64,000 nt of DNA from Bacteroides sp. CAG:530 (GCA_000434735.1 FR881281.1:12777-76776), one strand, 5' to 3'. Numbered from the stretch's first letter, positions 9,069 to 63,611 are shown. Notes: a model not told the origin generated them from the letters alone. Translations and numbers: made by a program.

Positions 9069-9212
9069 AGTTTTGCCTTTTTGTTTGTTCTTAATCTTAA
9101 TACATCTATTAAATGCGGAAACATGCTTTTTAATGCATCGCTATAGCTATAAAGAATGTTAAAGCGAAAATCAGCTACATCCATAACAAGGGAAACAGTG
9201 GACTATATAAAA

Positions 9213-21253: not shown

Positions 21254-21279
21254 TGCTTATCATAGTATACTAAATACAG

Positions 21280-21320
21280 AAAAGCCATCAGAGTTATAAA
21301 CTTACCCTGATGGCTTTTCT
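21280..21320. terminator. bidirectional terminator between murF and the convergent phosphoesterase gene
   Basis: aaaagccatcag ... ctgatggctttt, with T-rich flanks on both strands. Confidence 0.65.
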
Positions 21321-21334
21321 TGTAATCACGTTAT

Positions 21335-37984: not shown

Positions 37985-40900
37985 ATGAAAAACCGTATCT
38001 ATACCATCGTATTACTGACCTTGTGCTTTTGCCTTAATATAACAATGGCACAAGGTGCTGGTCATTCTAAAGATAACCTGCATTTTTCTCATATCTCTAT
38101 CAATAACGGGTTGTCGCAGAACACTATATTCGCCATCGCGCAAGATGCCAAAGGCTATATGTGGTTTGCTACGCACAATGGGGTCAACAAATACGATGGA
38201 TACGATTTTACTATCTATCAGAATAATCCGCAAGATTCTACCACCATAGCAAACGATATTATCCGCACGTTGGTGACCGACGACAAAGGACGCGTATGGA
38301 TAGGAACCGAAAGCGGTTTATCGTATTACAACGAAGAAAGAGACATCTTTGAGAATTTCTACTTAAAGAATAGCAAAACAGCTACGGTTTCAAGCATAGT
38401 CACGCTGTCCGACTCGCAACTATTGGTCAACGCCGAGGGACAACTTTACAGTTTCGACGCTAAGAGCAAGGCATTCTCACAACAGACATTGCCTACCGAC
38501 CTGCTGCAACTCAACGTAACCGCCCTTTACCGTACCGCACAAAGCATATATATAGGTACTGCCGAAAACGGAGTTTTCGTGTGGGATTATAAGGGCAAGC
38601 GCATTCAGCGTTTAAGCCTCAGCATAAGACACCGCATACAAGCACTTTTGCTGCAAAATCCAAGCACGCTATGGATTGCGACTGAGGGAGAAGGCTTATA
38701 CCGACTCAACCCACAAACCGGAGAGCAGAAACATTATGTACATTCGTACAATGAAGGCGATATCAGCTCAAACTTTATTCGTGCCTTATCAGTTGATACA
38801 AAAGGTTATTTATGGATAGGTACTTTCAATGACCTTAACGTGTATCATGAAAGTAGCGATAAGTTCACTGCCTACACACATAACCCCATCGACCCAGAAA
38901 GTTTGAGTCAGCGTTCGGTGCGCTGCATCTACAAGGATTCGCAGGGAGGTATGTGGCTCGGCACGTACTTTGGCGGTATTAACTATTATCACCCGCTAAA
39001 GAACCGCTTCCGAAATATACAGCGACTAACATATAAGAAGCAACTGAACGACAATGTGGTAAGTTGCATAGTAGAAGATAGTAAGCACAACTTATATATA
39101 GGTACCAACGATGGCGGCGTAAACTACTACGACCCGCATACCGATGAGGTTACTTACTATACTTTCAACAACAAACAAAGTCCCGTAGTAGAATCTAACA
39201 ACGTGAAATGTATCTCTATCGACGAGAAAAGGAACGTAGTGTACGTAGGTACCCACGCTGGAGGAATAAAGATAATACACCGTGCCGGAGGCAACATAGA
39301 ACATTGCTATAGCGAGAATAATCCATCGGCAACACAGAACATTTATTCACTGCTGCCGTATAAGGATAACATGCTATGGGCAGGAACATTAAACGGACTG
39401 TACCTGTTCAATAAAGACAGCAAAACATTTACGGCTGTAGATAAAGATGTTAACGGCAATGAGATTCCAGACGAACAGATTAACATCTTATTCCAGGATT
39501 CAAAGCGAAGACTTTGGATTGGAGGTAAAAACAGTCTGACTGTATATAAGATAACAGACAACGGACTGAAAGCCATAAAGATTTCTATCGACGGCTTCAA
39601 CAACATTGTAGCGGTACAAGACATTCACGAAGATGAAGAACATTGTCTATGGTTCTGTACGCAATGGGGACTTTACAAGCTGGATAGAGAAAAGCACGTT
39701 ATCACTCATTACACCACCAAAAACGGACTGCCCAACAATGTGATATACGGCATAGAAGAAGACTCTTACCATCATCTTTGGCTCAATACCAACCACGGAT
39801 TGAGTTGCCTCAACCCATCGAACGGACAATTCAGAAACTTCTCCGTAAACGACGGACTGCAGAGTAACCAGTTTAATCCGCACTCGCACTGCCGCACTGC
39901 CGACGGAAGCTTATACTTCGGAGGCATAAACGGAATTTCAACATTCCGTCCAGAACTGCTTACGTTCAACCCATTTACGCCAAAGCCGTTCTTTACTAAA
40001 TTCTACCTATATAATAAGGAGGTACATCCGGGCGACGAAAGCGGAATACTTAGCAAGAACATTTCAGATACTGATTTCAGATACTGAAAAGATTGTCTTG
40101 AAGCCGTCGCAACGCGCCTTTACACTGGAGTTTGTAGTAACCAACTTCATATCCGGACAGCATAACACGTTCTCTTATCAGCTGGAAGGTTATGACAAGG
40201 AATGGTATTACCTTAAAGGACATCAGCGAAGCGTATCGTACTCTAACCTGCCCGCAGGAACGTACCGTTTCCTAGTGAAAGCTGCCAATAACGACGGACA
40301 TTGGAGCAGCGAACCCGCCATGCTTACCATCAAGGTGCTGCCCGTATGGTATGCTACTTGGTGGGCGATACTGTTATTCGTTATCATAACGGTAGCGTTG
40401 ATGGCTATTATATTACGTTATTTCTGGGAACGGAAGTCGATGGAAGCACGCCTGAAACTTGAACAGAAAGAGAAATTGCACCAAGAAGAGATAGCACAGA
40501 TGAAGATGCGTTTCTTCATCAACATTTCGCATGAGTTGCGTACTCCGCTTACTCTTATCTTGGCGCCGATACAAGATATGCTGGCTAAAACTACCGATAA
40601 ATGGATGAAAGAGCAGTTGAACTACGTAAACCGTAACGCCAATCGCTTGCTCAACCTTGTAAATCAGTTAATGGACTACAGAAGAGCTGAGCTGGGAGTG
40701 TTTAAGCTAAAGGTAGAGCATACATGTATATATAAGACAGTAAAAGAAAACTTCATGTTCTACGAAAAGTTGGCTCGTACCAAGAACTTGGAGTATACGT
40801 TAATTTCAGATATAGAAGATAAGGAATGCTATGCCGACCCTAAATACGTAGAGCTTATACTGAACAACTTGCTGTCTAACGCCTTTAAATATACCGAAAA

Positions 40901-42056
40901 AGGTAGTATCACTGTTCGCCTCACCATAAAGGACGACCAACTGCAGCTGGAAGTAAGCGATACAGGATGCGGTATAGAGCAAGACAAGCACAAGCGAATA
41001 TTCGAACGCTTCTATCAGCTTAAGAACAACTATGTAGGTAGCGGTATCGGACTCTCATTGGTAGAGCGTTTGGTGGAATTGCATCACGGACATATAGAAT
41101 TGGTAAGCGAAAAGGGCAAAGGTAGTATATTTACCATCTATCTGCCGCAGAACCCTAACGCATACGCCGAAAACGAATTCTATGGCAGCAGCGAAGATGC
41201 GGAACCAGAAGAAGTACACTCTACCAACTCTAAAGAGATGTATATCATAAACACCGAGAAAGACGACAACACCACAGAAGAAGATACCGACAATAAGAAA
41301 GGATGTATCCTTGTGGTAGAAGACAACGAAGAGATACGCCATTATCTATATAGCGGATTACAGCCCAACTTCTGCATAAAACAGGCAGCCAACGGTGCCG
41401 AAGCACTCGACATTCTGAAGGATACACAGGTAGATATCGTGATAACCGATGTCATGATGCCAGTAATGGATGGTATAAAACTATGTAAGCAGATAAAGCA
41501 GAACATTGTAACCAGCCATATACCTGTTATCATCCTTTCGGCTAAGACCGATGTGAACGATCAGATGCAGGCCATGCAGACTGGAGCCGATGACTACATA
41601 GCCAAGCCGTTCTCGCTTAGCGTGCTAATAGCCAAAGTGCAGAACCGCATGCGCACTCGTGCCCGCATGATAGAGCATTACGCAAAATCAGCCGAGGTAG
41701 ACCCTGAAAAGATAACCTTCAACGCTATGGACGAGAAGTTACTGAAACGCGCCGTCGAAGTAGTGAAGGCCAATATGGATAATCCAGAATTCTCTGCCGA
41801 AGAGTTTGCACGCAATATGAATATGAGTCGCTCTAACCTTCACCTGAAGTTGAAAGGCGTAACCGGAGAATCGGCTATAGAGTTCATACGCAAGATTCGT
41901 TTTAACGAAGCTTGCCGCTTGCTGCGCGAAGGACAATACAGTATTTCCGAGATAAGCAGCATGGTTGGTTTCAACACACCGTCATACTTCTCTACGGTAT
42001 TCAAGAAGTACATGGGTTGCTTGCCTACAGAATACGTTAAGAAAGGCAACCGATAA
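37985..42056 (+). pseudogene. hybrid two-component system sensor kinase/response regulator (HTCS; beta-propeller + Y_Y_Y + TM + HisKA/HATPase + REC + AraC-HTH), interrupted by a +1 frameshift caused by a 13-bp tandem duplication
   Basis: ORF 37985..40087 (700 aa) carries the periplasmic propeller repeats and ends NISDTDFRY*. ORF 40098..42056 (652 aa) starts in the +1 frame with Y_Y_Y, TM, HELRTPL, HATPase, REC (VVEDNEEIR...DVMMP) and the AraC HTH. Deleting one of the two ATTTCAGATACTG copies at 40061-40086 joins them as ...NISDTEKIVLKPSQRAFTLEF... It starts 4 nt after the tatC stop. Confidence 0.75.
40061..40086 (+). repeat. perfect 13-bp tandem duplication (ATTTCAGATACTG x2) inside the HTCS gene
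   Basis: The copies lie at 40061-40073 and 40074-40086. The length is not a multiple of 3, and the duplication creates TGA at 40085-40087. Confidence 0.9.
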
Positions 42057-42100
42057 TACGGCAGTCACAAGATTCTGTAAAAAACAACCAAGTTAATATG

Positions 42101-42142
42101 CGCTATGCCGCACGTCAACCAACGTGCGGCATAGCGTTTTTT
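42101..42142 (+). terminator. strong rho-independent terminator after the HTCS gene
   Basis: cgctatgccgcacg ... cgtgcggcatagcg (14-bp stem, 8-nt loop) + T6. Confidence 0.8.
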
Positions 42143-42199
42143 CGTATCTGTAATTGTCAAAAAACTTGCGAATAAAAGTTTGTTTTCTTTTATTCAATT

Positions 42200-42292
42200 C
42201 TATAAACTTAGCCTAAGAATATGTATACTTAGCCTAAGTTTATATATTCTTAGTTTAAGTTTTTATATACTTAGGCTAAGTTTATAGAATTC
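42200..42292. repeat. 4 copies (first inverted) of the 22-bp TTAGGCTAAGTTTATATAT unit, locus B
   Basis: Units are ctataaacttagcctaag (inverted), cttagcctaagtttatatattc, ttagtttaagtttttatatac and ttaggctaagtttatagaattc. The three direct units align copy-for-copy with 3891..3955 at roughly 85-90 % identity. It lies between the HTCS terminator and the PUL promoter. Confidence 0.7.
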
Positions 42293-42510
42293 ATGCCAAG
42301 CAATCAGCTTTTTCATCGCATGCCATCACACTTTCCACAAACATTGCCACAGCATTTACACATCACAAAACACTGATAAACAAGTGCTCTAAACATACGT
42401 ATAATCGCATTTTGCACAATTTTAAAAGTTCTCAAAACAAATGTTGCATTGATTGTACGATATTATGGAAAAGAAAAGTTATCTTTACGATACATACAAA
42501 CGTTAACCTA

Positions 42511-42518
42511 TAACTTTG
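42511..42518 (+). promoter_or_regulatory. candidate -7 promoter element (TAnnTTTG) for the PUL operon
   Basis: taactttg lies 45 nt upstream of the first PUL gene ATG (42563). Confidence 0.35.
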
Positions 42519-42562
42519 CATCACTAAAGTTCTAATCAATAATTTCTTAAAAGAGAGTATCT

Positions 42563-44767
42563 ATGAATAAACTTCATCTCTGTCTCATCGCAGCGATGGC
42601 GCTTACCGCGTGCACTGAAGACGACGAGACTCTAAAGGGTTCAGGAGTGATAGAGGGTACTATCATGCCGACTGAAAAGCCCAATGATGTTATCACTGAA
42701 GGCATTTTTGAAAAGTTAAATCTCGACTACCCAGGGTTGGAAAAAGTGAAAGCTTACCACGAGGCTGGTCAAGATTATTACGCATGCTATGAATTGTTGC
42801 AGTACTATCGCAACCGTAGCAACGTAATCAACCCAAGCATCGACTTGATTAACACATCTTACTCTGCCGCAGAAAAAGCTATGGCCGACCAAGCTCTGCT
42901 GCATCAGTTCTATGTTCGCGGCTTTTCTGCCGACTTAGGCGCAGACAATAAGCAAGGAACTTCTGATGACACATTCTACAAATTCGAGAAGAAAGACGAA
43001 AACGGACAAACTGTTATCGACTGGGATTTGCAGGTAGAAGGAGTAACCAGCGCAGAATTCAAATATCAGCGTCACCGTTGGCAGTGGATGGAACCGCAGG
43101 CCAAGACATATCGCGTAACCAAAAACGAAGATTATATCAAGAATTGGATAGAGACCTACCAAAGCTGGATGAATACTTATCCATGCCCTAACGCAAAATT
43201 CGACGATAACGAAACTGATAAGAACTCAAACTATCAGTGGAAAGGACTGCAGACTGCCGAACGTTTGCTGTCGCAGCTTAACGTAATGCAGTACTATCTG
43301 CAATCTACCAACTTCACACCCGAATGGCTTTCTACATTCTTGATTTCTATAGCCGATCATGTAGAAATGATTCGCAAGAACTACTATCAGACTCCGGGCG
43401 ACAACATTCGCTTAAGCCAGATACAAGCCGTATTTACAGCAGGAGTATTGATGCCGGAATTTAAGAACGCCACAGAATGGACAAACGAAGCATCTACTAT
43501 GCTCGATACGGAAATAGGTTCTCAGTTCCTTGAAGACGGTGTACATGCCGATCTCGACCCGAGCTATCACATCGGTTCAGTAAGCAACTGCCTCAGCCTC
43601 TATTATCTGTTGTCGCTTAACGATAAGACAGATTTGCTGCCGGCTTCGTTCGTATCGAAGCTGAAAAACGCTACTAACTTCCTGAAAGACATAATCTATC
43701 CAAACTATACTATCGACAATTACAACGATACCCGTTCAGACAGATTAGGTAAGAGCATTCAGATTAAGAACTTCAAGAAATACAGCGAAATCTATCCAGA
43801 CGATGAAGAAATGAAGTACATGGCATACGAACGTGCCAAAGGCACTGTGCCTTCGTACACTACTAAAGCATATTCGGCAGCAGGTTACTACATGCTTCGT
43901 AGCGGTTGGACAGAAAACTCTACCATGATGGTACTGAAGAATAACTATAATCCTGAAGCTAAATGGCACTGCCAGCCGGATAATCAGACATTCAGCCTAT
44001 ACCGCAACGGACGTATATTCTTCCCCGATGCAGGATGTCATGGATACGAAGGTGACCCGTTACGCAAAGATTTCGCAGCGGCAGTAAACCACAACACTTT
44101 GACCGCATTGAGTAAAGACCCAGACGCAACTCACCGTAAAGGAAAGTTCCTTACCATGTATACAGAAAAAATGAACGGTGTAAATGTTGACGTTCTTTCT
44201 ACTCAGTTCGAGATGAAAGAAGGTTTGACTCACCGTCGTACAGTATTCTTCGTTAATAAGGCATTCTTCGTTATTGCCGATGAAGCATTTGGTGATGGAA
44301 ACAAAGACAAGGTGAACTTGAACTTCCACATGATTACAACTGATGAATGTCCTACAGTAGCCGATGCTGACGCTGACAAGAAAACAGCAGGACTCCACAC
44401 TACCTTTACCGACGGTAACAATATGGTATTGCGTTCTTTCTACGCTGAAGGCTCTACAACCGGAGCGCTTGAAGGTAAAATAGACAACAAGGAAACAGAA
44501 GTATGGAATAATACTGCTGATGCCATTTCTAAAGCAAGCGGAAAGCGTTTAGGCATGAAATTCAATGTTCGTAAGCCTATCAACGGAGCATCTCGCCTCA
44601 TCACTATCATCAAACCGATAGACGGAGCTTATGACGCAAACATGGAACTCGACGCTAAGTTTACCGACAACACGGAAGAGACACGCAATACGTTCCATGC
44701 CGACGGCGTGACACTGCAAGTTACAGTAGACGGCAAGACTTATAATTTGCAAGCAAAAATAAAATAA
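42563..44767 (+). CDS. heparinase III-family (PL12-like) polysaccharide lyase, lipoprotein
   Basis: 734 aa with a signal + lipobox (LTAC). It shares paralog-like blocks with the 53531 gene (LNLDYPGLEKVK, HRWQWM, WHCQPDN, HRRTVFFVN, FVIADEAFG), typical of heparinase II/III-like (alpha/alpha-toroid + beta-sandwich) lyases. Confidence 0.75.
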   Translation: MNKLHLCLIAAMALTACTEDDETLKGSGVIEGTIMPTEKPNDVITEGIFEKLNLDYPGLEKVKAYHEAGQDYYACYELLQYYRNRSNVINPSIDLINTSYSAAEKAMADQALLHQFYVRGFSADLGADNKQGTSDDTFYKFEKKDENGQTVIDWDLQVEGVTSAEFKYQRHRWQWMEPQAKTYRVTKNEDYIKNWIETYQSWMNTYPCPNAKFDDNETDKNSNYQWKGLQTAERLLSQLNVMQYYLQSTNFTPEWLSTFLISIADHVEMIRKNYYQTPGDNIRLSQIQAVFTAGVLMPEFKNATEWTNEASTMLDTEIGSQFLEDGVHADLDPSYHIGSVSNCLSLYYLLSLNDKTDLLPASFVSKLKNATNFLKDIIYPNYTIDNYNDTRSDRLGKSIQIKNFKKYSEIYPDDEEMKYMAYERAKGTVPSYTTKAYSAAGYYMLRSGWTENSTMMVLKNNYNPEAKWHCQPDNQTFSLYRNGRIFFPDAGCHGYEGDPLRKDFAAAVNHNTLTALSKDPDATHRKGKFLTMYTEKMNGVNVDVLSTQFEMKEGLTHRRTVFFVNKAFFVIADEAFGDGNKDKVNLNFHMITTDECPTVADADADKKTAGLHTTFTDGNNMVLRSFYAEGSTTGALEGKIDNKETEVWNNTADAISKASGKRLGMKFNVRKPINGASRLITIIKPIDGAYDANMELDAKFTDNTEETRNTFHADGVTLQVTVDGKTYNLQAKIK

Positions 44768-44792
44768 TAATAACTCTTAATCTCATAACCAA

Positions 44793-47045
44793 ATGAACGT
44801 AAGACACAACATCTTATCCCGATTTTTGGGAGTTTTGACGGTCATGGTATTCGCATTGCTGGGCATTACTTCATGCTCGGAAACAGAAACCACCGACAAA
44901 ACCGATTTTATTCTCTACTATACCAGCATGACCGATATAGGTCCTGGCATGAGTAGCGACATTGCACAACCCAGTTACAAGGGAGCCACACCTTCTGACT
45001 TCACTATCACAGGAGTTACTTTGGACGGACAGGCTTACACAGGCAACTTGTTCGAGATTAATCCTACTAGCGGAACAGTACACATAGAAAGCGATGAAAC
45101 AACCCCAGTAGGTGTTTATAAGATTTCTGTTTCGTGTGTAGCAGGTGGAAGCACTTTCACTTACAACGACATTATCAGTGTAAACTTCTTGAAGCGTGTG
45201 CCCGAAGGCATCACTGTTACTCCGGAAGCATTGGTTGCCGATTTCGCTGACATCATCGATGCCAACAGTACAGTAGAATTACCTACCGCACAGGTTACTA
45301 CAGAACAGAACCATATCTCTATTACAGGATATTCTATCTCAAGCGTTCGCTTAGGCGAGACTATCGTCGACAACAAGAAGAACCCGATGTTCGCTGTTTC
45401 TTCAGACGGAACAATCTCTATCGTTCGCGGCTCTAATGCTATCGAACCGGGACTTTACACTATCGACCTTAAGTTGAACACTGCCGTATCGGGTAGCGAC
45501 AGCGAAGAAGGTTTGTTCGCTAACGCACTTACTGTAAACGTAACTTCTAAGCCGTTGGCTTTGACTTACGCTACAGGTAAATTGGAAGAAGCTACAGAAG
45601 AATCGGGCAACACATCTTTCGTTAGCCAAGTTCCTACATTCAAGGGTTCTACAGACGGTATCGCTTATTCTATAGAAAGCGTTTCGCCAGCTTCAGACAA
45701 ATTCGTTATCGATGCCAAGACTGGCGTTATCTCTGTAGCCGAAGGTCACGGACTTAAGAGCGGCGAAAAATATGTTGTCTCTGTTCGCGTTAAGAACGAC
45801 TATAGCACAGAAGGTGTAGTATTCAACAACGTATTCACACTGAACGTAGTAGAATACATCGAGCCTATTTCTAACTTCGCTTACGAAATGACTCCTGTTA
45901 CAGAACAGGTAGAATTCGAAATTCCTGTAAAAGACGGATTCAAGGGTGCAGAACCTGTATTCGTATTTGAATCTATCTCTGCCGAAGATAAGAACATCGT
46001 ATCATTGGACGGAAAGACCGGAACAATCTCTGCTAAGAAAGGTCACAAACTGACTTTAGGAGAACACAAGTTCACCGTAAAAGCATCAAACGATAAGAAT
46101 AGCGAAACCGCAGAGTTAATTATCAATGTCACTGAAAACCCCAACAAGTTTACATACATCCGCTACGGAAACAACTTGGGATTGACTCCTGCCGAAAACT
46201 ACGCTAACCAGTTCAGACTGGCAGATAAGGAAGAATTCAACGGTAACGCAGAATTTAGCACTCCTGAAACCGACAGTAAAAAGACATTGACTTGGAGCGT
46301 AAGCGGAATTGACGTTGGTGGTACTTCAACTTGGAATAAAGTAAAAATTGACTCTAAAACTGGTAAATTAACTCTCAATGCTCTACCTAATGAACAAAAA
46401 TGTGTTGTAGTATTGGTAAAAGCTACTGCAGGTTCTGGCAAAAAGGCTTATTCTATAACAGTGCCAGTATTCTTCCACAACTCTAATGCTGATAAAACTA
46501 ATGGTAAGATAGAATACACCCCATTCGTTCTGCAAGTAAATCCAAAGAAGGGTGGACGTTCTGTTACTCCTACCATTACTAACACTATAGATATGAGCAA
46601 ATTTGTTTTGGATTTCAGACGTGACCCTATCTATTACAATATTAATGGAGAATATCAAGACGGCACCCCACTTGAATCGGGAGGTACGCAAAAACACACA
46701 AAAGGCTACTATAAACAGTCTCCATTTATGGAAGCCTTGTGGGTACAATGCGGAGCTGGATTAGGAGCCAAAGCCCCCATGGCTTACTTCGATGTAAAGG
46801 GCAATATAAGGGAAAATCATACAGATAAAACATTGGGTTATGTAGACAATGCAGACGGAGACAAGAAATTCTCAGTTGTAATAAACGCTAACCAATGGTG
46901 CCAACGTGCAGAAGATAGCCAGGATATATTAGCTTGGGCAAACGGTGTCGTCATAATGAGCATGACATATAGCGACAACGTCACTAATGTAAACAAAGGA
47001 ACAGAAGTAGGTCCTATCGTAATTTGGCTTGATACTAATTTTTAA
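44793..47045 (+). CDS. PUL-encoded surface lipoprotein, probable surface glycan-binding protein (SGBP)
   Basis: 750 aa with a signal + lipobox (ITSC). It has multiple Ig-like beta-sandwich repeats and no catalytic motifs. Its position next to susC/susD matches PUL SGBPs. Confidence 0.55.
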   Translation: MNVRHNILSRFLGVLTVMVFALLGITSCSETETTDKTDFILYYTSMTDIGPGMSSDIAQPSYKGATPSDFTITGVTLDGQAYTGNLFEINPTSGTVHIESDETTPVGVYKISVSCVAGGSTFTYNDIISVNFLKRVPEGITVTPEALVADFADIIDANSTVELPTAQVTTEQNHISITGYSISSVRLGETIVDNKKNPMFAVSSDGTISIVRGSNAIEPGLYTIDLKLNTAVSGSDSEEGLFANALTVNVTSKPLALTYATGKLEEATEESGNTSFVSQVPTFKGSTDGIAYSIESVSPASDKFVIDAKTGVISVAEGHGLKSGEKYVVSVRVKNDYSTEGVVFNNVFTLNVVEYIEPISNFAYEMTPVTEQVEFEIPVKDGFKGAEPVFVFESISAEDKNIVSLDGKTGTISAKKGHKLTLGEHKFTVKASNDKNSETAELIINVTENPNKFTYIRYGNNLGLTPAENYANQFRLADKEEFNGNAEFSTPETDSKKTLTWSVSGIDVGGTSTWNKVKIDSKTGKLTLNALPNEQKCVVVLVKATAGSGKKAYSITVPVFFHNSNADKTNGKIEYTPFVLQVNPKKGGRSVTPTITNTIDMSKFVLDFRRDPIYYNINGEYQDGTPLESGGTQKHTKGYYKQSPFMEALWVQCGAGLGAKAPMAYFDVKGNIRENHTDKTLGYVDNADGDKKFSVVINANQWCQRAEDSQDILAWANGVVIMSMTYSDNVTNVNKGTEVGPIVIWLDTNF

Positions 47046-47073
47046 TTCAATTATCCATTAATCATATAGATTT

Positions 47074-50000: not shown

Positions 50001-50230
50001 TGAAGAACGTAACTTTGGGATATACCATTCCGCAGAAACTTACTAAGAAGTTCTATGTACAGAAACTCCGCGTATACGGAAGCGCACAGAACTTGTTCTG
50101 CCTGAGCAAATATAGCGGTTACGACCCAGAAGTAAGTACAGCTGCAAACAACCCGATGACACCGGGACTTGACTGGGGTGCATATCCTAAGAGCCGTATC
50201 TTCACAATAGGACTTGATTTACAATTCTAA
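47074..50230 (+). pseudogene. SusC-like TonB-dependent transporter, apparent +1 frameshift near 49900-49907
   Basis: ORF 47074..49923 (949 aa) carries the carboxypeptidase-regulatory-like, plug and barrel domains and ends ...ADRWSAYKRI*. ORF 50000..50230 is the canonical SusC C-terminus (...GLDWGAYPKSRIFTIGLDLQF), and its frame is open from 49892. Reading W-S in frame 1 and then PTNASNLVPKTNGYITNEVYSRFVEDGSFLRLKNVTLGYTIPQ in frame 2 restores a normal SusC; one extra nucleotide (around g49906) explains it. Confidence 0.7.
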
Positions 50231-50245
50231 TAAAAACGAAACAGT

Positions 50246-51964: not shown

Positions 51965-52003
51965 CTATTGGAAAATAATTGAAAATATAACTTCAAGCAC
52001 AGA

Positions 52004-52055
52004 GGCGCAAAGGAGCAATAAAAAAACAATGTTTCTTTGCGCCTTATGCTTTATT
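52004..52055 (+). terminator. hairpin + T-rich tract after susD (possible attenuating terminator inside the PUL)
   Basis: ggcgcaaag ... ctttgcgcc (9-bp stem, 22-nt loop), then ttatgctttatt. A second long-range inverted repeat, ggccgatta...taatcggcc, lies at 52059-52150. Confidence 0.4.
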
Positions 52056-52211
52056 AAAGGCCGATTAAGACAATTATTATAGTCTATTCAACAAAAGTTG
52101 TATAACAAAAATGCGCTTTGAAAGGCTTTAGCACAATAATCGGCCTCTCTGACATAACAGTAAACTAATTTTGTAACCAAGAAAACAAACCCATAAAAAC
52201 AATACTTTATA

Positions 52212-55528: not shown

Positions 55529-55604
55529 ACCATTTATTGTTGTCGGGGATGGGATGAACATAATCCCTACTCCGACCTCAATAAAACCATTATAACTCTA
55601 TATC

Positions 55605-57209
55605 ATGAAAACAGTATCTCAAGCAGCATTGTGCCTTCCTTTAGTGGCACTGAATTTAACAAGCTGCGCAACCCAAAAAAAAGAAGAGCCGAAACAGCCG
55701 AACATTATTTTTATAATGACCGACGACCATACCACTCAGGCTATGTCTTGCTACGGAGGAAATCTTATCCAGACTCCAAACATGGACCGCATCGCCAATG
55801 AAGGTATCCGTTTCGACAACTGCTATGCAGTAAACGCCCTTTCAGGTCCGTCAAGAGCCTGCGTACTGACAGGTAAATTCAGCCACATGAATGGCTTTAC
55901 AGACAACGCTTGTAAATTCAACGGCGATCAGCAGACATTCCCGAAACTATTGCAGAAAGCAGGATACGAAACTTCTATCATCGGAAAATGGCATCTTATC
56001 TCTGAACCACAAGGATTCGACTACTGGAGTGTCTTAAGCGGACAAGAAGAACAAGGTGACTACTACGATCCTGACTTCTGGGAAAACGGTAAACACATAA
56101 CAGAAAAAGGTTATGTAACCGATATTATCACAGACAAGGCGATAAAATGGATGGAAGGACGCGACAAGAGCAAACCGTTCTGCATGATGTTCCACGAAAA
56201 AGCGCCTCATCGCGACTGGATGCCGGCTCCACGTCATTTAGGTATATTCAACGACGTTACTTTCCCCGAACCAGAGAATCTGTTCGATGACTACAAGGGA
56301 AGACAAGCTGCAGCCGAACAAGACATGTCGATTGCCAAGACTCTGAGAGAAGACTGGGACTTGAAACTTCTTACTCACGACGAAATAGTAAACGGAAAGT
56401 CAAGACTGCGCGATGTCTATATGCGTATGCCGGAAGATGTTCAGCACAAATGGGATTCTGTTTATGCACCACGTATCGCAGAATATCGCAAAGGCAACTT
56501 GAAAGGCAAAGAATTGATAAGCTGGAAATATCAGCAATACATGCGCGATTATCTGGCAACCGTTCTTTCTGTAGACGAAAACATCGGACGATTGCTTGAT
56601 TATCTGAGCGAAACAAATCAGTTGGACAACACTATCATAGTTTATACTTCCGACCAAGGCTTCTTCTTGGGAGAACACGGATGGTTCGACAAGCGATTCA
56701 TGTACGAAGAATGCCAGCGTATGCCGCTTATCATACGTTACCCCAAAGCTATTAAGGCAGGTTCTGTAAGCTCGGCTATCAGTATGAACGTTGACTTCGC
56801 TCCTACATTCCTCGACTTTGCAGGTGTTGATATACCGGAAGATATTCAGGGTAAATCATTGAAGCCTATCCTCGAAAACGAAGGAAAGACTCCTGCCGAT
56901 TGGCGCAAGGCTGCCTACTATCATTATTATGAATATCCGGCAGAACACTCAGTTAAACGTCACTACGGAATACGCACACAAGACTTTAAGTTGATTCATT
57001 TCTATAATGACATCGATGTTTGGGAAATGTACGACATGAAGAAAGATCCGCATGAGATGAACAACATCTTTGGCAACCCTGACTATGCCGACAAGCAGCA
57101 AGAACTGATGCAGCTGTTGAAAGAGACTCAGGAACAATATAAAGATACCGACCCCGACGAAAAAGAAAAAGTACTTTTCAAGGGCGACCGTAGATATATG
57201 AAACGATAA
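55605..57209 (+). CDS. S1-family sulfatase, Ser-type (formylglycine motif S-G-P-S-R)
   Basis: 534 aa with a lipobox (LTSC). The sulfatase signature is NALSGPSRACVLTG, and the metal-binding motifs are IFIMTDDHT and GKWHL. Confidence 0.9.
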   Translation: MKTVSQAALCLPLVALNLTSCATQKKEEPKQPNIIFIMTDDHTTQAMSCYGGNLIQTPNMDRIANEGIRFDNCYAVNALSGPSRACVLTGKFSHMNGFTDNACKFNGDQQTFPKLLQKAGYETSIIGKWHLISEPQGFDYWSVLSGQEEQGDYYDPDFWENGKHITEKGYVTDIITDKAIKWMEGRDKSKPFCMMFHEKAPHRDWMPAPRHLGIFNDVTFPEPENLFDDYKGRQAAAEQDMSIAKTLREDWDLKLLTHDEIVNGKSRLRDVYMRMPEDVQHKWDSVYAPRIAEYRKGNLKGKELISWKYQQYMRDYLATVLSVDENIGRLLDYLSETNQLDNTIIVYTSDQGFFLGEHGWFDKRFMYEECQRMPLIIRYPKAIKAGSVSSAISMNVDFAPTFLDFAGVDIPEDIQGKSLKPILENEGKTPADWRKAAYYHYYEYPAEHSVKRHYGIRTQDFKLIHFYNDIDVWEMYDMKKDPHEMNNIFGNPDYADKQQELMQLLKETQEQYKDTDPDEKEKVLFKGDRRYMKR

Positions 57210-57235
57210 TTCACTTTTATATAATTTATAATACT

Positions 57236-58864
57236 ATGGACAGAAGACGATTTTTAAAAACTACAGGATGGTCTTTCTTAGGTATTGCAGCATCGGGTAG
57301 CTTGCTCGAAGCTTGCACACCGGGCAGTAAAGAAGCTAAAAAAATAATGCCGTCGGCCAGCGACTATAAAATGTTCTGGGGCGACTTACATAACCATTGT
57401 AACATCACTTACGGACACGGCGACATGCGCGACGCTTTCGAAGCGGCTAAGCAGCAACTCGACTTTGTAAGTGTTACCCCACATGCTATGTGGCCTGATA
57501 TCCCAGGAGCCGACGACCCACGTTTGGCTTGGGTTATCGACTATCATACTGAAGCCTTCAAACGTCTGCGTGCCGGAGGATACGAAAAGTATGTAGCAAT
57601 GACCAACGAATACAATAAAGAAGGCGAGTTCCTTACTTTCATTGGTTATGAAGCACACAGCATGCAGCACGGCGACCACGTTGCCCTAAACTACGACCTC
57701 GACGCACCGCTTGTAGAATGTACTTCTATCGAAGATTGGAAACAGAAAGCCAAAGGTCATAAGGTATTCGTTACTCCGCACCACATGGGCTATCAAACAG
57801 GATACCGCGGATACGACTGGAACTTCTTTACCGAAGGCGATGTAACTCCGTTCGTAGAAATGTATTCTCGTCACGGATTGGCAGAAACAGATCAGGGCGA
57901 CTATCCTTATCTGCACGATATGGGACCTCGCCAGTGGGAAGGTACCATCCTTTGCGGATTGGAAAGAGGACACAAGTTCGGTATCATGGGTTCTACAGAC
58001 CAGCACTCAGGTTATCCTGGTAGCTACGGTGACGGCCGAATCGGTGTTTTGTCTCCGTCACTGCACAGAGAAAACATCTGGGAAGCACTGCGCAACCGCC
58101 ACGTTTGCTGCGCTACCGGCGATAAGATTCTCATCGACTTCCGCCTGAACGACGCGTTTATGGGAGACGTTACTAAGGGAAACAGCCGCCGCATCTACCT
58201 AAATGTAGAAGGAGAAAGCTGCATAGACTATGTAGACGTTATCAAGAACGGACGCTTGTTGGCACGCCTCAACGGTCCGATGACTCCGGTAATGCCGAAG
58301 GAAGATACCGTACGTTGCAAAGTGAAAGTACAGTTCGGATGGAACCGCGAAGAGAAATACGTAGCTTGGAAAGGAAACTTGTCAATCGATAAGGGTCGTA
58401 TCGTAAGCGTTACTCCTTGCTTTAGAGGTGCAGCGTTCACATCGCCTCAGCCGGGAGAAAAAGAGTTCCACACTCACGTAAACAAGATTTTGAGCGTAAG
58501 CGAAAAAAATACTGAGTTGGAAATGTACTCTTCTAAGAACCCCAACACCACTACCGATGCTACACAGGCAGTAATTCTGGAACTGGAAATGCCGAAAGAC
58601 GGAGTGCTTACAGCCGAATTCAACGGCAAGAAGTTCAGCCACACACTGGGCGAATTGTTAGAAGGCTCACGCACTCACTTCATGATAGGATGGTTGAGCG
58701 AGGCTATTTTGTTTAACCGCGCAATGCCTGAAAGCTGCTACACTGTAGAGCACTACATGGAAGATACCACACCAGAAAGAGATACTGACTATTATTACAT
58801 CCGTGTACGCCAGCGCGACCAGCAATGGGCTTGGAGTTCACCAATCTGGGTAGAAAGAACATAA
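57236..58864 (+). CDS. Tat-signal PHP-domain (DUF3604/CehA-like) metal-dependent hydrolase of unknown specificity
   Basis: 542 aa. The N-terminus, MDRRRFLKTTGWSFLGIAASGSLLEAC, is a canonical twin-arginine motif (RRxFLK) with a possible lipobox. The PHP motifs are GDLHNHCNITYGHGD, FVSVTPHA, GYEAHS, TPHHMGY and STDQHSGYPG. Confidence 0.7.
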   Translation: MDRRRFLKTTGWSFLGIAASGSLLEACTPGSKEAKKIMPSASDYKMFWGDLHNHCNITYGHGDMRDAFEAAKQQLDFVSVTPHAMWPDIPGADDPRLAWVIDYHTEAFKRLRAGGYEKYVAMTNEYNKEGEFLTFIGYEAHSMQHGDHVALNYDLDAPLVECTSIEDWKQKAKGHKVFVTPHHMGYQTGYRGYDWNFFTEGDVTPFVEMYSRHGLAETDQGDYPYLHDMGPRQWEGTILCGLERGHKFGIMGSTDQHSGYPGSYGDGRIGVLSPSLHRENIWEALRNRHVCCATGDKILIDFRLNDAFMGDVTKGNSRRIYLNVEGESCIDYVDVIKNGRLLARLNGPMTPVMPKEDTVRCKVKVQFGWNREEKYVAWKGNLSIDKGRIVSVTPCFRGAAFTSPQPGEKEFHTHVNKILSVSEKNTELEMYSSKNPNTTTDATQAVILELEMPKDGVLTAEFNGKKFSHTLGELLEGSRTHFMIGWLSEAILFNRAMPESCYTVEHYMEDTTPERDTDYYYIRVRQRDQQWAWSSPIWVERT

Positions 58865-58865
58865 A

Positions 58866-59819
58866 ATGGAAAATAAAAGATTCGCTATAGGAATAGACCT
58901 TGGCGGAACTTCTGTGAAATACGCCTTGACTGATGCCGAAGGCGTATTTCATTTTGAGGGGAAGATTCCGTCGAAAGCCGATATCTCGGCAGAAGCCGTT
59001 ATCGGACAATTGAGCTTTGCCGCACAGCAGTGTATGGATGCAGCAGCAAAAAACAATATTACAGTGGCTGGCATCGGTATTGGTACACCGGGCATTGTAG
59101 ACGAAACAAACCGTAAGGTACTTGGTGGAGCCGAAAACATTGTAGGCTGGGAGAATGTAAACTTAGCAGACGTAATGGAAGAGGCAACCGGACTCAAGGT
59201 TCAGGTGGGCAATGATGCCAACATGATGGGACTGGGCGAAACTCTGTTCGGAGCCGGAAAAGGAATGAAGAACGTGGTATTCGTAACCGTAGGTACAGGC
59301 ATCGGAGGTGCGGTAGTTATAGACGGCAAGCTATTTAACGGATTCGCCAACCGAGGTACAGAATTGGGTCACGTGCCCTTGATAGCCAACGGTGAAGAAT
59401 GCGCTTGCGGCTCTGTAGGCTGCTTAGAGCATTATGCCTCTACATCGGCTTTGGTACGCCGCTTCTGCAAACGCGCTAAAGAAGCCGGACGCATATTTTC
59501 TGAAGAGGTAAACGGCGAAGTTATAGTACGCCTTTACAAAGAAAACGATCCGATAGCCGTTGAAAGCCTCAACGAGCATTGCGACTTCTTAGGACATGGC
59601 ATCGGAGGATTCATCAACATCTTCAGTCCGCAACTGATAGTAGTGGGCGGAGGATTATCAGAAGCCGGCGATTTCTATATTCAGAAAGTCAGCGAAAGAG
59701 CCATGCGATACGCTATCCCCGACTGCGCCGTAAACACCCGCATCATGGCTGCCACATTAGGCAATAAAGCCGGATGCTTAGGAGCTGCCGCTTTAATTTT
59801 TCAACAGTCAGAACAATGA
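58866..59819 (+). CDS. ROK-family sugar kinase (glucosamine/N-acetylglucosamine kinase-like)
   Basis: 317 aa. The motifs are the ATP-binding IGIDLGGT, ROK-type GHVPL and the zinc motif CACGSVGCLE. The start is 1 nt after the upstream stop, and the stop overlaps the next ATG. Confidence 0.85.
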   Translation: MENKRFAIGIDLGGTSVKYALTDAEGVFHFEGKIPSKADISAEAVIGQLSFAAQQCMDAAAKNNITVAGIGIGTPGIVDETNRKVLGGAENIVGWENVNLADVMEEATGLKVQVGNDANMMGLGETLFGAGKGMKNVVFVTVGTGIGGAVVIDGKLFNGFANRGTELGHVPLIANGEECACGSVGCLEHYASTSALVRRFCKRAKEAGRIFSEEVNGEVIVRLYKENDPIAVESLNEHCDFLGHGIGGFINIFSPQLIVVGGGLSEAGDFYIQKVSERAMRYAIPDCAVNTRIMAATLGNKAGCLGAAALIFQQSEQ

Positions 59820-61090
59820 AAAAGAAAATACTACAACTTACCCTAATCATGATGTTCTGGTTTACCATTTCGTTCATCACGAACATCTTGGGACCACTTA
59901 TACCGGACATCATCAATAACTTCCACCTGAGCGACTTGGCTATGGCTGGGTTCATTCCCACCTCGTTCTTCATTGCTTATGCGTTGATGTCTATCCCTGC
60001 CGGTATCCTGATAGACCGTTTCGGCGAGAAACCCGTATTATTCTGCGGATTCCTCATGCCGTTCGTAGGAACTATCTTGTTTGCCATGCTGCATACTTAT
60101 CCGGCATTGCTTGCATCATCGTTCATCATCGGACTGGGTATGGCCATGCTGCAAACGGTTATCAACCCGCTGCAACGCGCTGTGGGAGGCGAAGAGAACT
60201 ACGCATTTATAGCCGAGTTGGCACAATTCGTATTCGGAGCCGCTTCGTTTGTCAGCCCGTTGGTTTACACATACCTGATTCACGAACTCGACCCGTCTAT
60301 CTACAGCGAAGGCAAGAATTGGCTTATCGACCTATTGGCTCGCGTCACTCCGTCCGATTTGCCTTGGGTTTCACTGTACTGGATATTCACAATCATCCTA
60401 TTGGCCATGCTGATAGCTGTAGCCGTATCTAAGTTTCCGAAGATAGAACTGAAAGAAGACGAAAAGAGCGGCTCGCGTTCATCGTACACAGAGCTATTTA
60501 AGAAGCCTTCTGTATGGTTGTTTTTCTTAGGTATATTTTGCTACGTAAGTACAGAGCAAGGTTCTTCTATCTTTATGAGTACTTTCCTTGAACAATATCA
60601 CGGTATAAACCCACAAACTGATGGAGCACAAACCGTTAGTTTGTTCTGGGGACTGATGACTGTGGGATGTTTCTTCGGTATGATTCTGCTGAAGTTCATA
60701 GACAGCAAGCGTCTGCTTCAGATGTCGGGAATAATCACCATAGTATTGCTGGCATGCGCTTTGTTCGGAAGCAAACAGCTTTCTGTAATGGCATTCCCCG
60801 CTATCGGATTCAGTATTTCTATGATGTACTCTATAGTATTTTCATTGGCTCTCAACTCCGTATCCGAACATCACGGCTCGTTTGCCGGAATTCTTTGCTC
60901 GGCTATTGCCGGAGGTGCCATCGGTCCGCTTATCATCAGTAGCATAGCCGATCATACCTCACTGCAAGTCGGAATGTCGGCCCTGTTTGTATTCGTTGCC
61001 TACATTACCTTCATCGGTTTCTGGGCTAACCCGATTATAAACAACAAGACTATCAGCCTGAAAGATTTATTCCGCAAGAGAAGTCTGTAA
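59816..61090 (+). CDS. MFS transporter (FucP/glucose-galactose-type sugar permease)
   Basis: The start is taken at the internal MKKKILQLT (the ATGA overlap with the ROK stop). It has 12 predicted TM helices and an MFS sugar-porter-like N-terminal motif. Confidence 0.85.
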   Translation: MKKKILQLTLIMMFWFTISFITNILGPLIPDIINNFHLSDLAMAGFIPTSFFIAYALMSIPAGILIDRFGEKPVLFCGFLMPFVGTILFAMLHTYPALLASSFIIGLGMAMLQTVINPLQRAVGGEENYAFIAELAQFVFGAASFVSPLVYTYLIHELDPSIYSEGKNWLIDLLARVTPSDLPWVSLYWIFTIILLAMLIAVAVSKFPKIELKEDEKSGSRSSYTELFKKPSVWLFFLGIFCYVSTEQGSSIFMSTFLEQYHGINPQTDGAQTVSLFWGLMTVGCFFGMILLKFIDSKRLLQMSGIITIVLLACALFGSKQLSVMAFPAIGFSISMMYSIVFSLALNSVSEHHGSFAGILCSAIAGGAIGPLIISSIADHTSLQVGMSALFVFVAYITFIGFWANPIINNKTISLKDLFRKRSL

Positions 61091-61115
61091 AATATAATTT
61101 ATTACTTTATCCAAC

Positions 61116-63611
61116 ATGAAAAGAAATACAGTCTTTTTCGTTTTATTGCTCACATTTGCCTTTATCGCACGCCTCCAGGCACAAATGCCTGCCTCACTTT
61201 ACGAAGAATGGCGCAAGACATCTTATCCGGCAGGTGACGCAGTAGTATCTACCAATCCGTCTCCGCTGCTGTGGAAATCGGACAAATATTGGGAAAAGCG
61301 AAAAGTAACTTATAATGTATACCTGAGCCGCAACGCTGCGTTTCCTAAAGCCGAAACGCAAAGCAGCATGAATCAGCGTTATTGCTTCTACAACCCGCAC
61401 CGTAAATTAGAAAGCGGTAAATGGTATTGGAAATACGAAACCGTGGAAAACGGAAAGGTATCATCGAGCGAGGTTTATTCGTTCATCGTACCCGAATCTG
61501 CCGACGGACTCGTTACCCCTACTGCCAAAGAGTTCCGCAACAATATCAGCAAAAGCCATCCGCGTGTAATGAACTACGGACGCTCTATGGAAGATATTCA
61601 TCGCGACGCTCCACAGCACAGACTTTACAAAAGCATTATAAATACTGCTAAAGAAGCTGCCGCAAAACAAATTTATCGTGGCGCAGTGACCGACCCTAAC
61701 CCGGCAACTGCTCGCCGCCTTAACCAAAAGGCAGGTAAAGAAGTATCTCTGTATCATGAGCTGCTTGAAGGTTATACGCTATCGGCAGATAATGACATGA
61801 AAGATGCCTTGCTGAAACGTACCGATGTATTGCTGTCATGGCCTACTAACGACTTGTTAGGCTCTAAAGTCCTCACAGCTTTGGCTTTGGGGTACGACAT
61901 GCTGTACGATGAGCTGACAGCCGAAACCAAGCAACAGATACTTACTACCATCGACAAGCAGTTTAAAGAAGGACTGGCACGTTGGCCCGGATTTACCGAA
62001 GCACGTCAGGTAGAGAATCACTTCTGGCAGATGGAATTGGCAGGCAACTTTACAGCAGCCTTGGCTACTCTTGGCGAACTCGAATCGGCTACCGAAATGC
62101 TTGACTATACATACGGCTTGTTCATAGCTCGTTTCCCTAACCTTGCTACACAAGACGGTGGTTGGAACGAAGGCGAAGGCTATTATAGCGTAAACCAAAC
62201 AGCCGTGGTAGATATGGCATTATTGCTGAAAAAGTTGGGTGGCATTGATATCTTCAAGATGGGATGGTATCGTAATCTACCCGACTACTTTACTTACTTC
62301 TCGCCAGTGGCATCGCCTGTTTCAGGATTCGGCGATATGCACGACCGCGTAGAAACCGGAGGATTGAAGGGTCGTTCAGAAATGCTCACCATAGGTTGCG
62401 AAGAGAACAATCCGTACGCTTTATACCGCTTTTTCCAGTCGGTACGTCCCGTAGAATCATTCTTCGGAGCCACAACCGACGAGAAATACTGGAGAAAACC
62501 GTTGGCAAAAACAGAGCCTTGGTATCAGATAGTAAACAATATCTCTGTTGCCCCCAAGCGAGCTAAAGCTCCCACCAATCAGCCTACCGACAAGGTATTC
62601 TACGGAGTAGGAGCAGCAGCAATGCACTCTTGTCTGGCAGACCCAGCAAAAGATGTTACCGTATTCTTCCGCTCGTCGCCCTTCGGTTCCAAGGGTCACG
62701 CTCATGCCGACCAGAACAGCTTTAACATCTCACGTCACGGAGAACGTCTGTTCTACCCCACAGGATATTACACATCGTTTGCCGACATGCACTCGCTTAC
62801 TTCGTACAAGCATACCCGTGCTTGCAACTCTATCTTGATTAACGGCTACGGACAAGCATTCGGTCACGAAGGCTATGGATGGATTAAACGCCATATAGAA
62901 GGAGAAAACATGTCGTACGTATGCGGTGAAGCAGGAGAAGCTTATAAGAAGACTACCGACAAGCAGTTTGCCGATTTCATGAAGGAAAAAGGAATAAAGC
63001 AAGACGCACACTTCGGCATGGGAGACACTCCGATGAAGAAATTCGAGCGCCACGTTGTATTTGTACGTCCCGACGTAGTTGTGATATACGATGTTCTCGA
63101 AGCCGATGAAGCTTCAGAATGGAGCTTGTTGTTACACACCATGCGTCCGTCTACCGTCGACAAAAACAAGTTGACCGTAGAGACTAGCCGAAGCCATGCC
63201 GAAGCGCAAGTATTCGGAAGCACAGCGGTTAAGGGAAGCGTTACAAACAAATTCTTCTCTCCTGCCAACGACTTCAAGAAGAAATACCAGAACGGCACCC
63301 CCGACCAGTATCACGCTACTTTCTGCAACACCGAGAAAGTAAAGCAGATGCGTTACCTCACCATTATAAACATGTGTGACAAAGGTGCCAAGGTTACCGC
63401 ACTGAAGTCTTCAGGAAAAGGAAAATGGAAAATTGGCGACCTTCAGATAGAAGCCGAAATGGATGCCAATAAAGCACCTCACGCCACAATTAAGTATGGC
63501 AAAGAGCAACTCTCTATCGGTGCAGAAGAAACAACTCTTAACGGAACAAAGGGAACTGTAAGCAGCAAAAACCAAATGCCGACAGGTAGCTATAATTATC
63601 TGAAGCGATAA
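61116..63611 (+). CDS. heparinase II/III-like polysaccharide lyase, large (possibly PL15-type)
   Basis: 831 aa with a signal peptide. It has an N-terminal alpha/alpha-toroid and a C-terminal Hepar_II_III-like beta-sandwich with GHAHADQNSF. It is the last gene of the PUL. Confidence 0.65.
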   Translation: MKRNTVFFVLLLTFAFIARLQAQMPASLYEEWRKTSYPAGDAVVSTNPSPLLWKSDKYWEKRKVTYNVYLSRNAAFPKAETQSSMNQRYCFYNPHRKLESGKWYWKYETVENGKVSSSEVYSFIVPESADGLVTPTAKEFRNNISKSHPRVMNYGRSMEDIHRDAPQHRLYKSIINTAKEAAAKQIYRGAVTDPNPATARRLNQKAGKEVSLYHELLEGYTLSADNDMKDALLKRTDVLLSWPTNDLLGSKVLTALALGYDMLYDELTAETKQQILTTIDKQFKEGLARWPGFTEARQVENHFWQMELAGNFTAALATLGELESATEMLDYTYGLFIARFPNLATQDGGWNEGEGYYSVNQTAVVDMALLLKKLGGIDIFKMGWYRNLPDYFTYFSPVASPVSGFGDMHDRVETGGLKGRSEMLTIGCEENNPYALYRFFQSVRPVESFFGATTDEKYWRKPLAKTEPWYQIVNNISVAPKRAKAPTNQPTDKVFYGVGAAAMHSCLADPAKDVTVFFRSSPFGSKGHAHADQNSFNISRHGERLFYPTGYYTSFADMHSLTSYKHTRACNSILINGYGQAFGHEGYGWIKRHIEGENMSYVCGEAGEAYKKTTDKQFADFMKEKGIKQDAHFGMGDTPMKKFERHVVFVRPDVVVIYDVLEADEASEWSLLLHTMRPSTVDKNKLTVETSRSHAEAQVFGSTAVKGSVTNKFFSPANDFKKKYQNGTPDQYHATFCNTEKVKQMRYLTIINMCDKGAKVTALKSSGKGKWKIGDLQIEAEMDANKAPHATIKYGKEQLSIGAEETTLNGTKGTVSSKNQMPTGSYNYLKR

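Follow-up and report, generated by a model that had tools for sequence, protein, structure and literature searches.

The polysaccharide utilisation locus (PUL) for heparin and heparan sulfate (HS) in Bacteroides thetaiotaomicron is PUL85 (BT4652–BT4663; Cartmell et al. 2017, as summarised in PMC9067506). It is the closest described counterpart of the locus analysed here, a set of 12 genes at positions 37985–63611, all on the + strand, of a 64,000-nt stretch of DNA (the window) from the public metagenome-assembled genome (MAG) Bacteroides sp. CAG:530, which represents an uncultured human-gut species. The two loci have the same content and order: a hybrid two-component system (HTCS) regulator, a surface PL12 lyase, a surface glycan-binding protein (SGBP), SusC, SusD, GH88, a further PL12 lyase, a sulfatase, a BT4655-like protein, a ROK kinase, an MFS transporter and a lyase in the PL15 position. 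The window HTCS is 57% identical to a B. thetaiotaomicron HTCS. The differences are that the HTCS and SusC genes of the window are frame-broken, that no PL13 (BT4675-like) gene is found within the window, and that we are dealing with another species, known from metagenomes, whose functions are read from sequence only. In B. thetaiotaomicron, growth on HS reportedly suffers little when BT4661 or BT4662 is deleted (PMC9067506).

Mutational loss in systems of this type has also been described. In mice, the HTCS genes of B. thetaiotaomicron are hot spots of mutation, and that of PUL85 is one of them (bioRxiv 10.1101/2025.06.24.661302). Our data resemble that study in that the heparin/HS regulator accumulates mutations, the HTCS showing the most knock-outs here (eight, plus the window's own). 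However, the mouse polymorphisms arose on a scale of weeks in mono-associated animals, whereas those described below are fixed knock-outs in human-gut lineages, several of them shared between samples. For outer-membrane transport genes of Bacteroides, locally adaptive loss of function followed by purge or reversion has been put forward (Zhao et al. 2019; Torrillo & Lieberman 2024, PMC11379459). What that model shares with our data is that premature stops and frameshifts occur at the tree's tips, in genes of the SusC type and for surface proteins, on which strong purifying selection acts over the long term. In our case, though, no reversion was observed, any adaptive value is at most inferred, and the regulator and the binding protein are struck as often as the transporter. 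Finally, split open reading frames (ORFs) are also what ordinary pseudogenes in MAGs look like, and the GH88 lesion described below may be an assembly product, but two of the three lesions have been verified in independent assemblies and their intact ancestral alleles identified.

Our reading, to which we assign a probability of about 0.8, is that a PUL85-type locus has been switched off in a clonal lineage by two inherited mutations, one in the regulator and one in the transporter, and that loss of the front end of this PUL is recent and recurs across the species.

Lesions in the regulator, transporter and GH88 genes

The HTCS gene is interrupted by a perfect 13-bp tandem duplication of ATTTCAGATACTG at 40061–40086 on the + strand (copies at 40061–40073 and 40074–40086), which TRF scores as a 13-bp unit repeated 2.1 times with 100% match over 40061–40087. 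The duplication is a +1 frameshift, and a TGA arises inside the duplicated copy, splitting the regulator into 700 and 652 aa. When one ATTTCAGATACTG copy is removed, a single ORF of 1352 aa results, the length of the intact conspecific HTCS orthologues (P0001, 98% identity), and the site is single-copy in all haplotypes outside the window lineage. The first fragment (37985–40087, +; CDA76080.1) holds the signal/transmembrane (TM) segment and the periplasmic beta-propeller sensor with its Reg_prop repeats. The second (40098–42056, +; CDA76082.1), an ORF read from TTG, holds the Y_Y_Y domain, a TM helix, HisKA, HATPase, the receiver and an AraC helix-turn-helix. All HTCS domains are thus found across the two fragments, and the gene adjoins the operon. 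The break point lies between the propeller sensor and the Y_Y_Y/TM/kinase/receiver/DNA-binding part, and the second fragment has neither the sensor nor an N-terminal signal. Judging from this domain map, the lesion would uncouple ligand sensing from the kinase/regulator part of the protein. In B. thetaiotaomicron HTCSs the SHIP motif marks an auto-inhibited DNA-binding domain (bioRxiv 10.1101/2024.04.25.591157); the receiver domain here contains the conserved SHIP motif, and the sensor-less fragment, if it is made, is therefore more likely to be silent than constitutive.

A separate observation concerns the 5′ side of this gene. In a related species (64–67% identity; P0003–P0005) the HTCS is called as a protein of 1615–1628 aa that also carries a TatC domain. 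In the window, tatC and the HTCS gene are 4 nt apart (37980 and 37985), and in that species the two are either fused or mis-called.

The second lesion affects the gene for a TonB-dependent transporter of the SusC type (Plug and CarboxypepD_reg domains; 47074–50230) and consists of one extra C at 49904–49905 on the + strand, turning TCG into TCCG and again shifting the frame by +1. The window reads CGTTGGTCCGCCT at this site where every other haplotype has CGTTGGTCGCCT, the core being TGGTCCGCCT as against TGGTCGCCT in all other haplotypes. The truncated ORF (47074–49923, +; CDA76087.1) reaches its stop at 49921–49923 after 949 of 1051 aa, and the remaining 102 codons run on in the +1 frame to 50230. 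Intact SusC orthologues have 1051 aa, are ∼98% identical and read ...ADRWSPTNASNLVPK... at the lesion site. The out-of-frame remainder (49906–50230, +; ...PTNASNLVPKT...GLDLQF*) matches these orthologues and comprises the last ∼108 residues, including the terminal barrel strands. Since these C-terminal strands are needed for barrel folding, their removal would be expected to make barrel assembly fail. Either lesion alone would probably be enough to abolish induction or import, so that the PUL would be off in this lineage.

Both lesions recur in other assemblies. Exact protein look-ups placed the 700-aa HTCS fragment on five contigs and the 949-aa SusC on 10 contigs from assemblies other than that of the window. 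These lineage contigs share 99.8–99.98% identity with the window, and both the 13-bp duplication and the additional C recur in them. They were produced by different assemblers (SPAdes NODE contigs, k127- and scaffold-named contigs, and Logan), and the Logan assembly, from run SRR29904083, is much later judging from its accession number. We count at least three or four independent datasets for the two lesions, not eleven, because some of the ERZ assemblies share odd single-nucleotide polymorphisms and are probably re-assemblies of the same runs. The only lineage contig to span both sites, L004, has both lesions, and the others are lesioned at whichever site they cover. An independent lineage contig also covers 16.35 kb of the housekeeping part of the window with zero indels. 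Because the regulator and transporter lesions are reproduced in independent assemblies, they are genuine, inherited mutations of a near-clonal lineage and not assembly errors.

The third lesion is of a different standing. At the 3′ end of the gene for the GH88 unsaturated glucuronyl hydrolase, which has a DUF4995 N-domain (52212–53534, +; CDA76090.1; 440 aa as against 424/425 aa in relatives), there is a 31-bp tandem duplication at 53447–53508 on the + strand whose copies differ by one base, the first having TTA and the second TTG (TRF: 31-bp unit repeated 2.0 times, 96% match). It changes the C-terminus from ...HISYKDL* to ...HISYKIHGFEAHFIQRPLIISNS*, so that just the final 2 of 424 residues are replaced. 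The shifted stop overlaps with the ATG of the lyase gene that follows, and little effect on the enzyme is to be expected. In the whole protein collection the 440-aa GH88 was found on one contig only. Two loci of the window lineage, L004 (an 87,383-bp scaffold) and L005, have a single 31-bp copy, with TTG, as do the other conspecific loci over this site (L012–L021 and L023). Among the loci retrieved there was no conspecific GH88 gene call longer than 425 aa, and no haplotype other than the window had the TTA variant of the unit. The L004 scaffold name bears the code NIEL14-1, which we take to denote the Nielsen 2014 study that produced the CAG genomes. The third lesion is thus either a private change, neutral and very recent, or an artefact that arose in the 2014 assembly; a 31-bp duplication with a unique base in one copy would resemble an untrimmed contig-end overlap. 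An (ACT)n/(TAC)n tract 26 bp upstream, in the same gene (53413–53424), varies within the window lineage: it encodes Tyr-Tyr-Tyr in the window and in all other lineages and Tyr-Tyr in L004 and L005, which have one ACT unit fewer.

The first-pass annotation of this stretch had reported three +1 frame-disrupting lesions in a heparin-type PUL, two of them tandem duplications, in a locus otherwise intact and taken to be either in decay or a mutational hot spot. Comparison with intact orthologues bears out the three lesions in the sequence. The extra C in SusC is itself a 1-bp duplication, and every one of the lesions is thus a duplication (of 1, 13 or 31 bp) that gives a +1 shift. Once they are repaired, all 12 genes carry one stop, at the end, and have the length of their intact orthologues. 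Decay holds for the regulator and the transporter, whose lesions are inherited, and not for GH88, where 2 residues on one contig are concerned. Its suggestion of systematic assembly problems fails for the first two lesions and may apply to the third. By chance, all three lesions would fall inside this 40% of the window with p∼0.06, a value that is weak alone, so the significance of the clustering rests on the population data. Tandem copies such as these, a perfect one of 13 bp or a near-perfect one of 31 bp, would not be expected to arise by chance in 64 kb.

Inactivation and constraint across the species

We surveyed 49 further conspecific loci, 94–99% identical per gene at the nucleotide level, by aligning them gene by gene to the window in its repaired form. 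The anchors used for retrieval were SusC, the first lyase, the sulfatase, TatC and SusD, and most loci came from exact-protein look-ups. In addition, a scan of metagenome contigs with the first PL12 lyase (PL12a) contributed six conspecific loci, and a scan of genome contigs with SGBP gave one relative, 69% identical. Outside the window lineage, 19 independent inactivating events were found in four genes that form the front end of the PUL: HTCS, PL12a (42563–44767, +; 734 aa, intact in the window, in the position of the surface enzyme BT4662), the BT4661-like SGBP (44793–47045, +; 750 aa, intact, PF16319 matched at full length with E=0) and SusC. Eight of these lie in HTCS (stops at codons 105, 381, 426, 511 and 784, deletions of 1 bp at nt 2040 and of 2 bp at nt 2922, and an inversion), six in SGBP (four stops and two 1-bp indels), three in SusC (an 11-bp deletion, a stop at codon 205 and a 1-bp insertion) and two in PL12a (a 1-bp insertion and an 11-bp deletion). 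The eight downstream PUL genes together show one event, a 1-bp deletion in the PL15-position lyase of L046, and the thirteen flanking housekeeping genes show none; nor did SusD, with zero events in 63 locus-kb. Relative to the exposure surveyed (443 locus-kb of front end, 333 kb of downstream genes and 138 kb of housekeeping genes), the excess in the front end has a binomial p of 2e-4 against the downstream genes and of 0.006 against the housekeeping genes, both to be read as rough values.

Several of the events are common to 2–7 contigs from different samples and are therefore inherited. The lineages hit more than once (the window lineage, L017, L040, L059 and L060) have SusC or SGBP broken besides HTCS. 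Across the surveyed loci no site was hit in two lineages, and no event site was a simple repeat. Some candidates were discarded before counting: a GH88 5′ 'lesion' in L046 that is a scaffold gap of 10 N, an SGBP stop in L006/L007 on contigs of 1.4–1.9× coverage that apparently derive from the same reads, 'PfkB disruptions' produced by taking an upstream GTG as the reference start, and a ROK stop in L018 that costs only 2 residues.

Some features of the events themselves deserve mention. The premature stops arose mostly by G-to-T changes (GAA to TAA, GGA to TGA) and none by C-to-T at CAA, CAG or CGA; this bias might stem from a mutation spectrum of oxidative damage or, where contigs are singletons, from artefacts of the libraries. 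In L019 and two similar contigs (junction near 6576–6605), the segment from HTCS nt 369 to SGBP nt 1028 appears to be inverted, truncating both genes. No inverted repeats that would account for the inversion were found at the matching window positions, and it is either real or a misassembly. In L055, a SusC-like gene of a neighbouring PUL is called in two pieces (21130–21605; 99 aa, then Plug/barrel), and front-end disruption may on this account extend beyond the HS PUL.

Despite these losses, the PUL genes are kept under strong purifying selection species-wide, and the knock-outs are found at the tree's tips. Averaged over pairs of haplotypes, dN/dS is 0.042 for HTCS, 0.057 for PL12a, 0.029 for SusC and 0.037 for SusD, and ranges over 0.016–0.087 in the downstream PUL genes; in the flanking housekeeping genes it is 0.02–0.07, with one DUF3256 gene at 0.13. 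The highest value, 0.19, belongs to SGBP, the only PUL gene set apart. The SGBP gene shows further peculiarities: its nucleotide identity is 90–94% as against 96–99% for its neighbours, its orthologues have recurrent in-frame indels near nt 1512, 1913, 2007 and 2212, and the window SGBP forms a cluster of its own at 90% identity.

Within the window lineage, private substitutions in the PUL genes number 12 nonsynonymous and 30 synonymous (omega about 0.13). As these substitutions look purified and no further gene is broken, most of the lineage's separate history passed under purifying selection, and the knock-outs are recent. An old pseudogenised locus, under long-standing relaxed selection, was rejected on the same counts, together with the low species dN/dS and the ten other genes that are intact. 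Two changes were seen in single loci of the lineage: L004 has G330S in a conserved propeller motif of HTCS, and L005 has a 21-bp in-frame deletion in PL12a (window 43175–43195; product 727 aa). Both fit neutrality after the knock-out, in numbers too small for a test. Neither of the two variants of the exactly repaired HTCS nor the repaired SusC was present among ∼15 billion public proteins; hence neither a direct ancestor nor a revertant has been seen.

These data refine what had been proposed at first. The timing suggested by the first-pass annotation, shortly after relaxation of selection, fits the private substitutions and the absence of any other broken gene. It had also called for dN/dS against close relatives as a check on decay, and by that measure the PUL genes prove as constrained as housekeeping genes, SGBP excepted. 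What does not survive is a story confined to one strain, as the losses recur across the species, at the PUL's front end, and strike genes on which purifying selection is otherwise strong.

The remaining genes and the promoter region

The products of the region are those deposited as CDA76080–CDA76096 of Bacteroides sp. CAG:530, as found by exact protein look-ups, which places the window in an 87,370-bp contig of this MAG. By its gene content the region is identified as a heparin/heparan-sulfate PUL colinear with PUL85 (BT4663 to BT4652): the Pfam architecture of all 12 genes and their order fit the PUL85 order described in PMC9067506, with the heparinase II/III-type lyases, GH88, the sulfatase and the BT4661-like SGBP in their expected places. 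The SusC gene is adjoined by that for its SusD partner, a SusD_RagB lipoprotein recognised by Pfam (50246–51964, 572 aa). Downstream of GH88 come the second PL12 lyase (PL12b, 53531–55528, 665 aa), in the position of the periplasmic BT4657; a sulfatase (55605–57209, 534 aa) in that of BT4656, the 6-O-sulfatase; and a Tat-signal protein (57236–58864, 542 aa) in that of BT4655, a predicted N-sulfatase according to PMC9067506. A ROK-family sugar kinase (58866–59819) and an MFS sugar transporter (59774–61090), whose start is called 14 codons downstream in relatives, hold the BT4654 and BT4653 positions. The locus ends with a lyase made up of DUF4962 and a heparinase II/III C-domain (61116–63611, 831 aa) in the BT4652/PL15 position. 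These genes, SusD and those downstream of GH88, are all intact and on the + strand. The other ∼38 kb of the window contain about 35 housekeeping genes with full-length Pfam matches, and a Pfam/ORF survey detected no split gene among them. An Rfam scan of the whole window returned no match.

Between the regulator and the operon lies an intergenic region (42057–42562, +). By analogy with the role of the bt4662 promoter (bioRxiv 10.1101/2024.04.25.591157), it may contain a bt4662-like promoter of the susC/D operon. Within this region, at 42201–42286, is an array of a palindromic 21-bp unit, TAG[G/C]CTAAGTTTATATATACT. A second array of the unit occurs at 3893–3963, upstream of a malic-enzyme/PTA gene. 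When as many as 3 mismatches are allowed, the window contains 10 matches as against 0 expected. The intergenic array is conserved in a divergent haplotype (L036, 9640–9725), and the arrays may be a regulatory or REP-like element. Two loci, L036 (Hadza-named, 8712–10001) and L037 (MERR22-1, 8570–10001), have HTCS and the first lyase separated by an additional ∼0.8–0.9 kb, including a 174-bp unit repeated twice at 99% identity and GC-rich palindromic stretches. The extra DNA resembles a small insertion of non-coding sequence into the promoter region.

Explanations for the loss and its meaning

Taken together, the data are most economically read as repeated, short-lived loss of the front end for sensing and uptake, in settings where the substrate matters little or where maintaining the surface machinery is costly. 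Loss would run import-first, because the loss of downstream or periplasmic enzymes with import still working would be harmful. Constraint on SGBP and the surface lyase would be weak, given that B. thetaiotaomicron shows hardly any growth effect when they are deleted. Several points weigh against this account or limit it. The sample is non-random: only the longest contigs were taken, near-identical places were collapsed, and the lineages share ancestry. Some anchors needed an intact anchor gene, and some singleton events are on Logan contigs of unknown coverage. With such a non-random, non-independent sample the rates and p-values are rough. The controls were the flanking housekeeping genes and the PUL's own downstream genes, and front-end loss may be general to PULs. 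Loss of function is itself inferred, from the reading frames, and the 652-aa C-terminal HTCS ORF, translated from TTG, could in principle keep some activity.

The losses might instead have been positively selected. Inactivation of the regulator or of the surface parts (SusC, SGBP, surface PL12) would then be advantageous in some hosts, for instance where it takes away a phage receptor or antibody target or spares the cost of expression, and would amount to local adaptation instead of neutral decay. We consider this possible, if somewhat doubtful. The concentration of events in the regulator and surface components (19 as against 1) speaks for it, as does the fact that the multiply hit lineages are struck in SusC or SGBP and not downstream, and long-term purifying selection on the same genes suits a model of adaptive loss followed by purge or reversion (PMC11379459). 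The mutational hot spots reported for HTCS genes in mice agree with it too. However, SusD is surface-exposed too and has no events; SGBP and the surface PL12 are near-dispensable in B. thetaiotaomicron, so that weak constraint could cover 8 of the 19 events; and neutral loss that runs import-first accounts for the asymmetry equally well. A more specific form of the idea adds host lifestyle. Among loci labelled Hadza, Nepal or MERR22-1, 1 of 14 distinct loci is disrupted, as against 17 of 40 in other cohorts (Fisher p=0.02), a comparison that is confounded, as Hadza-type haplotypes form a group of their own and are more divergent, and that uses cohort labels partly guessed from record names, MERR22-1 being presumed to belong to the same project as Hadza/Nepal. 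In one SusD haplotype group all 23 contigs are intact. From this one might propose that the front end (HTCS, surface lyase, SGBP and SusC) is a recurrent target of selected inactivation in human guts, that knock-out lineages spread between hosts yet are short-lived on the tree, and that loss is tied to host lifestyle. We put this forward as speculation that is rather unlikely to hold in full.

The other alternatives we judge very improbable. Were the lesions artefacts of assembly or sequencing in a 2014 MAG, exact reproduction of the regulator and transporter lesions by other assemblers on other datasets would not be expected; for these two the idea is refuted, and the indel-free housekeeping part of the window indicates that the MAG contig is not generally error-ridden. 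For the GH88 lesion alone the idea gains from its occurrence on a single contig, its absence from L004 and L005 of the same lineage, the TTA base and the unit length, 31 bp being a very common assembler k-mer size. A mutational hot spot, due to slippage-prone sequence or replication context with selection unchanged, is about as improbable. It draws on the fact that every window lesion is a tandem duplication, on the ACT-unit change near the GH88 lesion and on the 21-bp PL12a deletion in L005, but there is no homopolymer or microsatellite at any lesion site and downstream PUL genes of the same composition are spared. The slippage-prone context raised at first also sits poorly with the other lineages, whose 19 events are scattered over four genes at different sites and are for the most part nonsense substitutions, 1–2-bp indels, deletions of 11 bp and 32 bp and one inversion; as no site was struck more than once and simple repeats are absent from all of them, a local slippage hot spot fails to account for the pattern.

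A perfect tandem duplication can be undone exactly through slippage or recombination, and the 13-bp duplication might on that ground serve as an ON/OFF contingency switch that comes and goes at high frequency. We give this reversible switch hardly any credence. Its repaired HTCS states, in both lineage variants, and the repaired SusC are missing from the public proteins searched, the lineage contigs are lesioned at every site they cover (both, in L004), both hits would have to revert, and other lineages do not use the site. A phase-variable contingency locus in general was likewise rejected, there being no simple-sequence tract at the lesion sites, no repaired state among the proteins searched, and breaks elsewhere in other lineages. 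So too was a programmed ribosomal frameshift or naturally split gene, as all other haplotypes covering the regulator and transporter sites read an uninterrupted frame there.

Recent, recurrent loss of the front end, as we read it, is of a kind already known, since PUL regulators and transporters that have become pseudogenes, and loss of function at the tree's tips, have been described in gut Bacteroides; the present locus is a further example. For annotation it means that this organism should be scored as a heparin/HS non-forager despite a complete-looking PUL, and that counts of carbohydrate-active enzyme (CAZyme) genes overstate its capacity. More broadly, it provides a natural example of a pathway knocked out repeatedly at its regulator and surface parts while purifying selection at the species level is strong. 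It bears on the debate over whether loss-of-function alleles in gut commensals are transient local adaptations or simple decay, and offers a testable case, with the intact ancestral sequence at hand for every lesion. If the lifestyle-linked reading were true, a pathway for host- or diet-derived glycans would be repeatedly shed in industrialised populations, or its surface proteins would be under phage or immune attack there; and the association with lifestyle, if upheld in a proper survey, would tie a host-glycan pathway to industrialisation.

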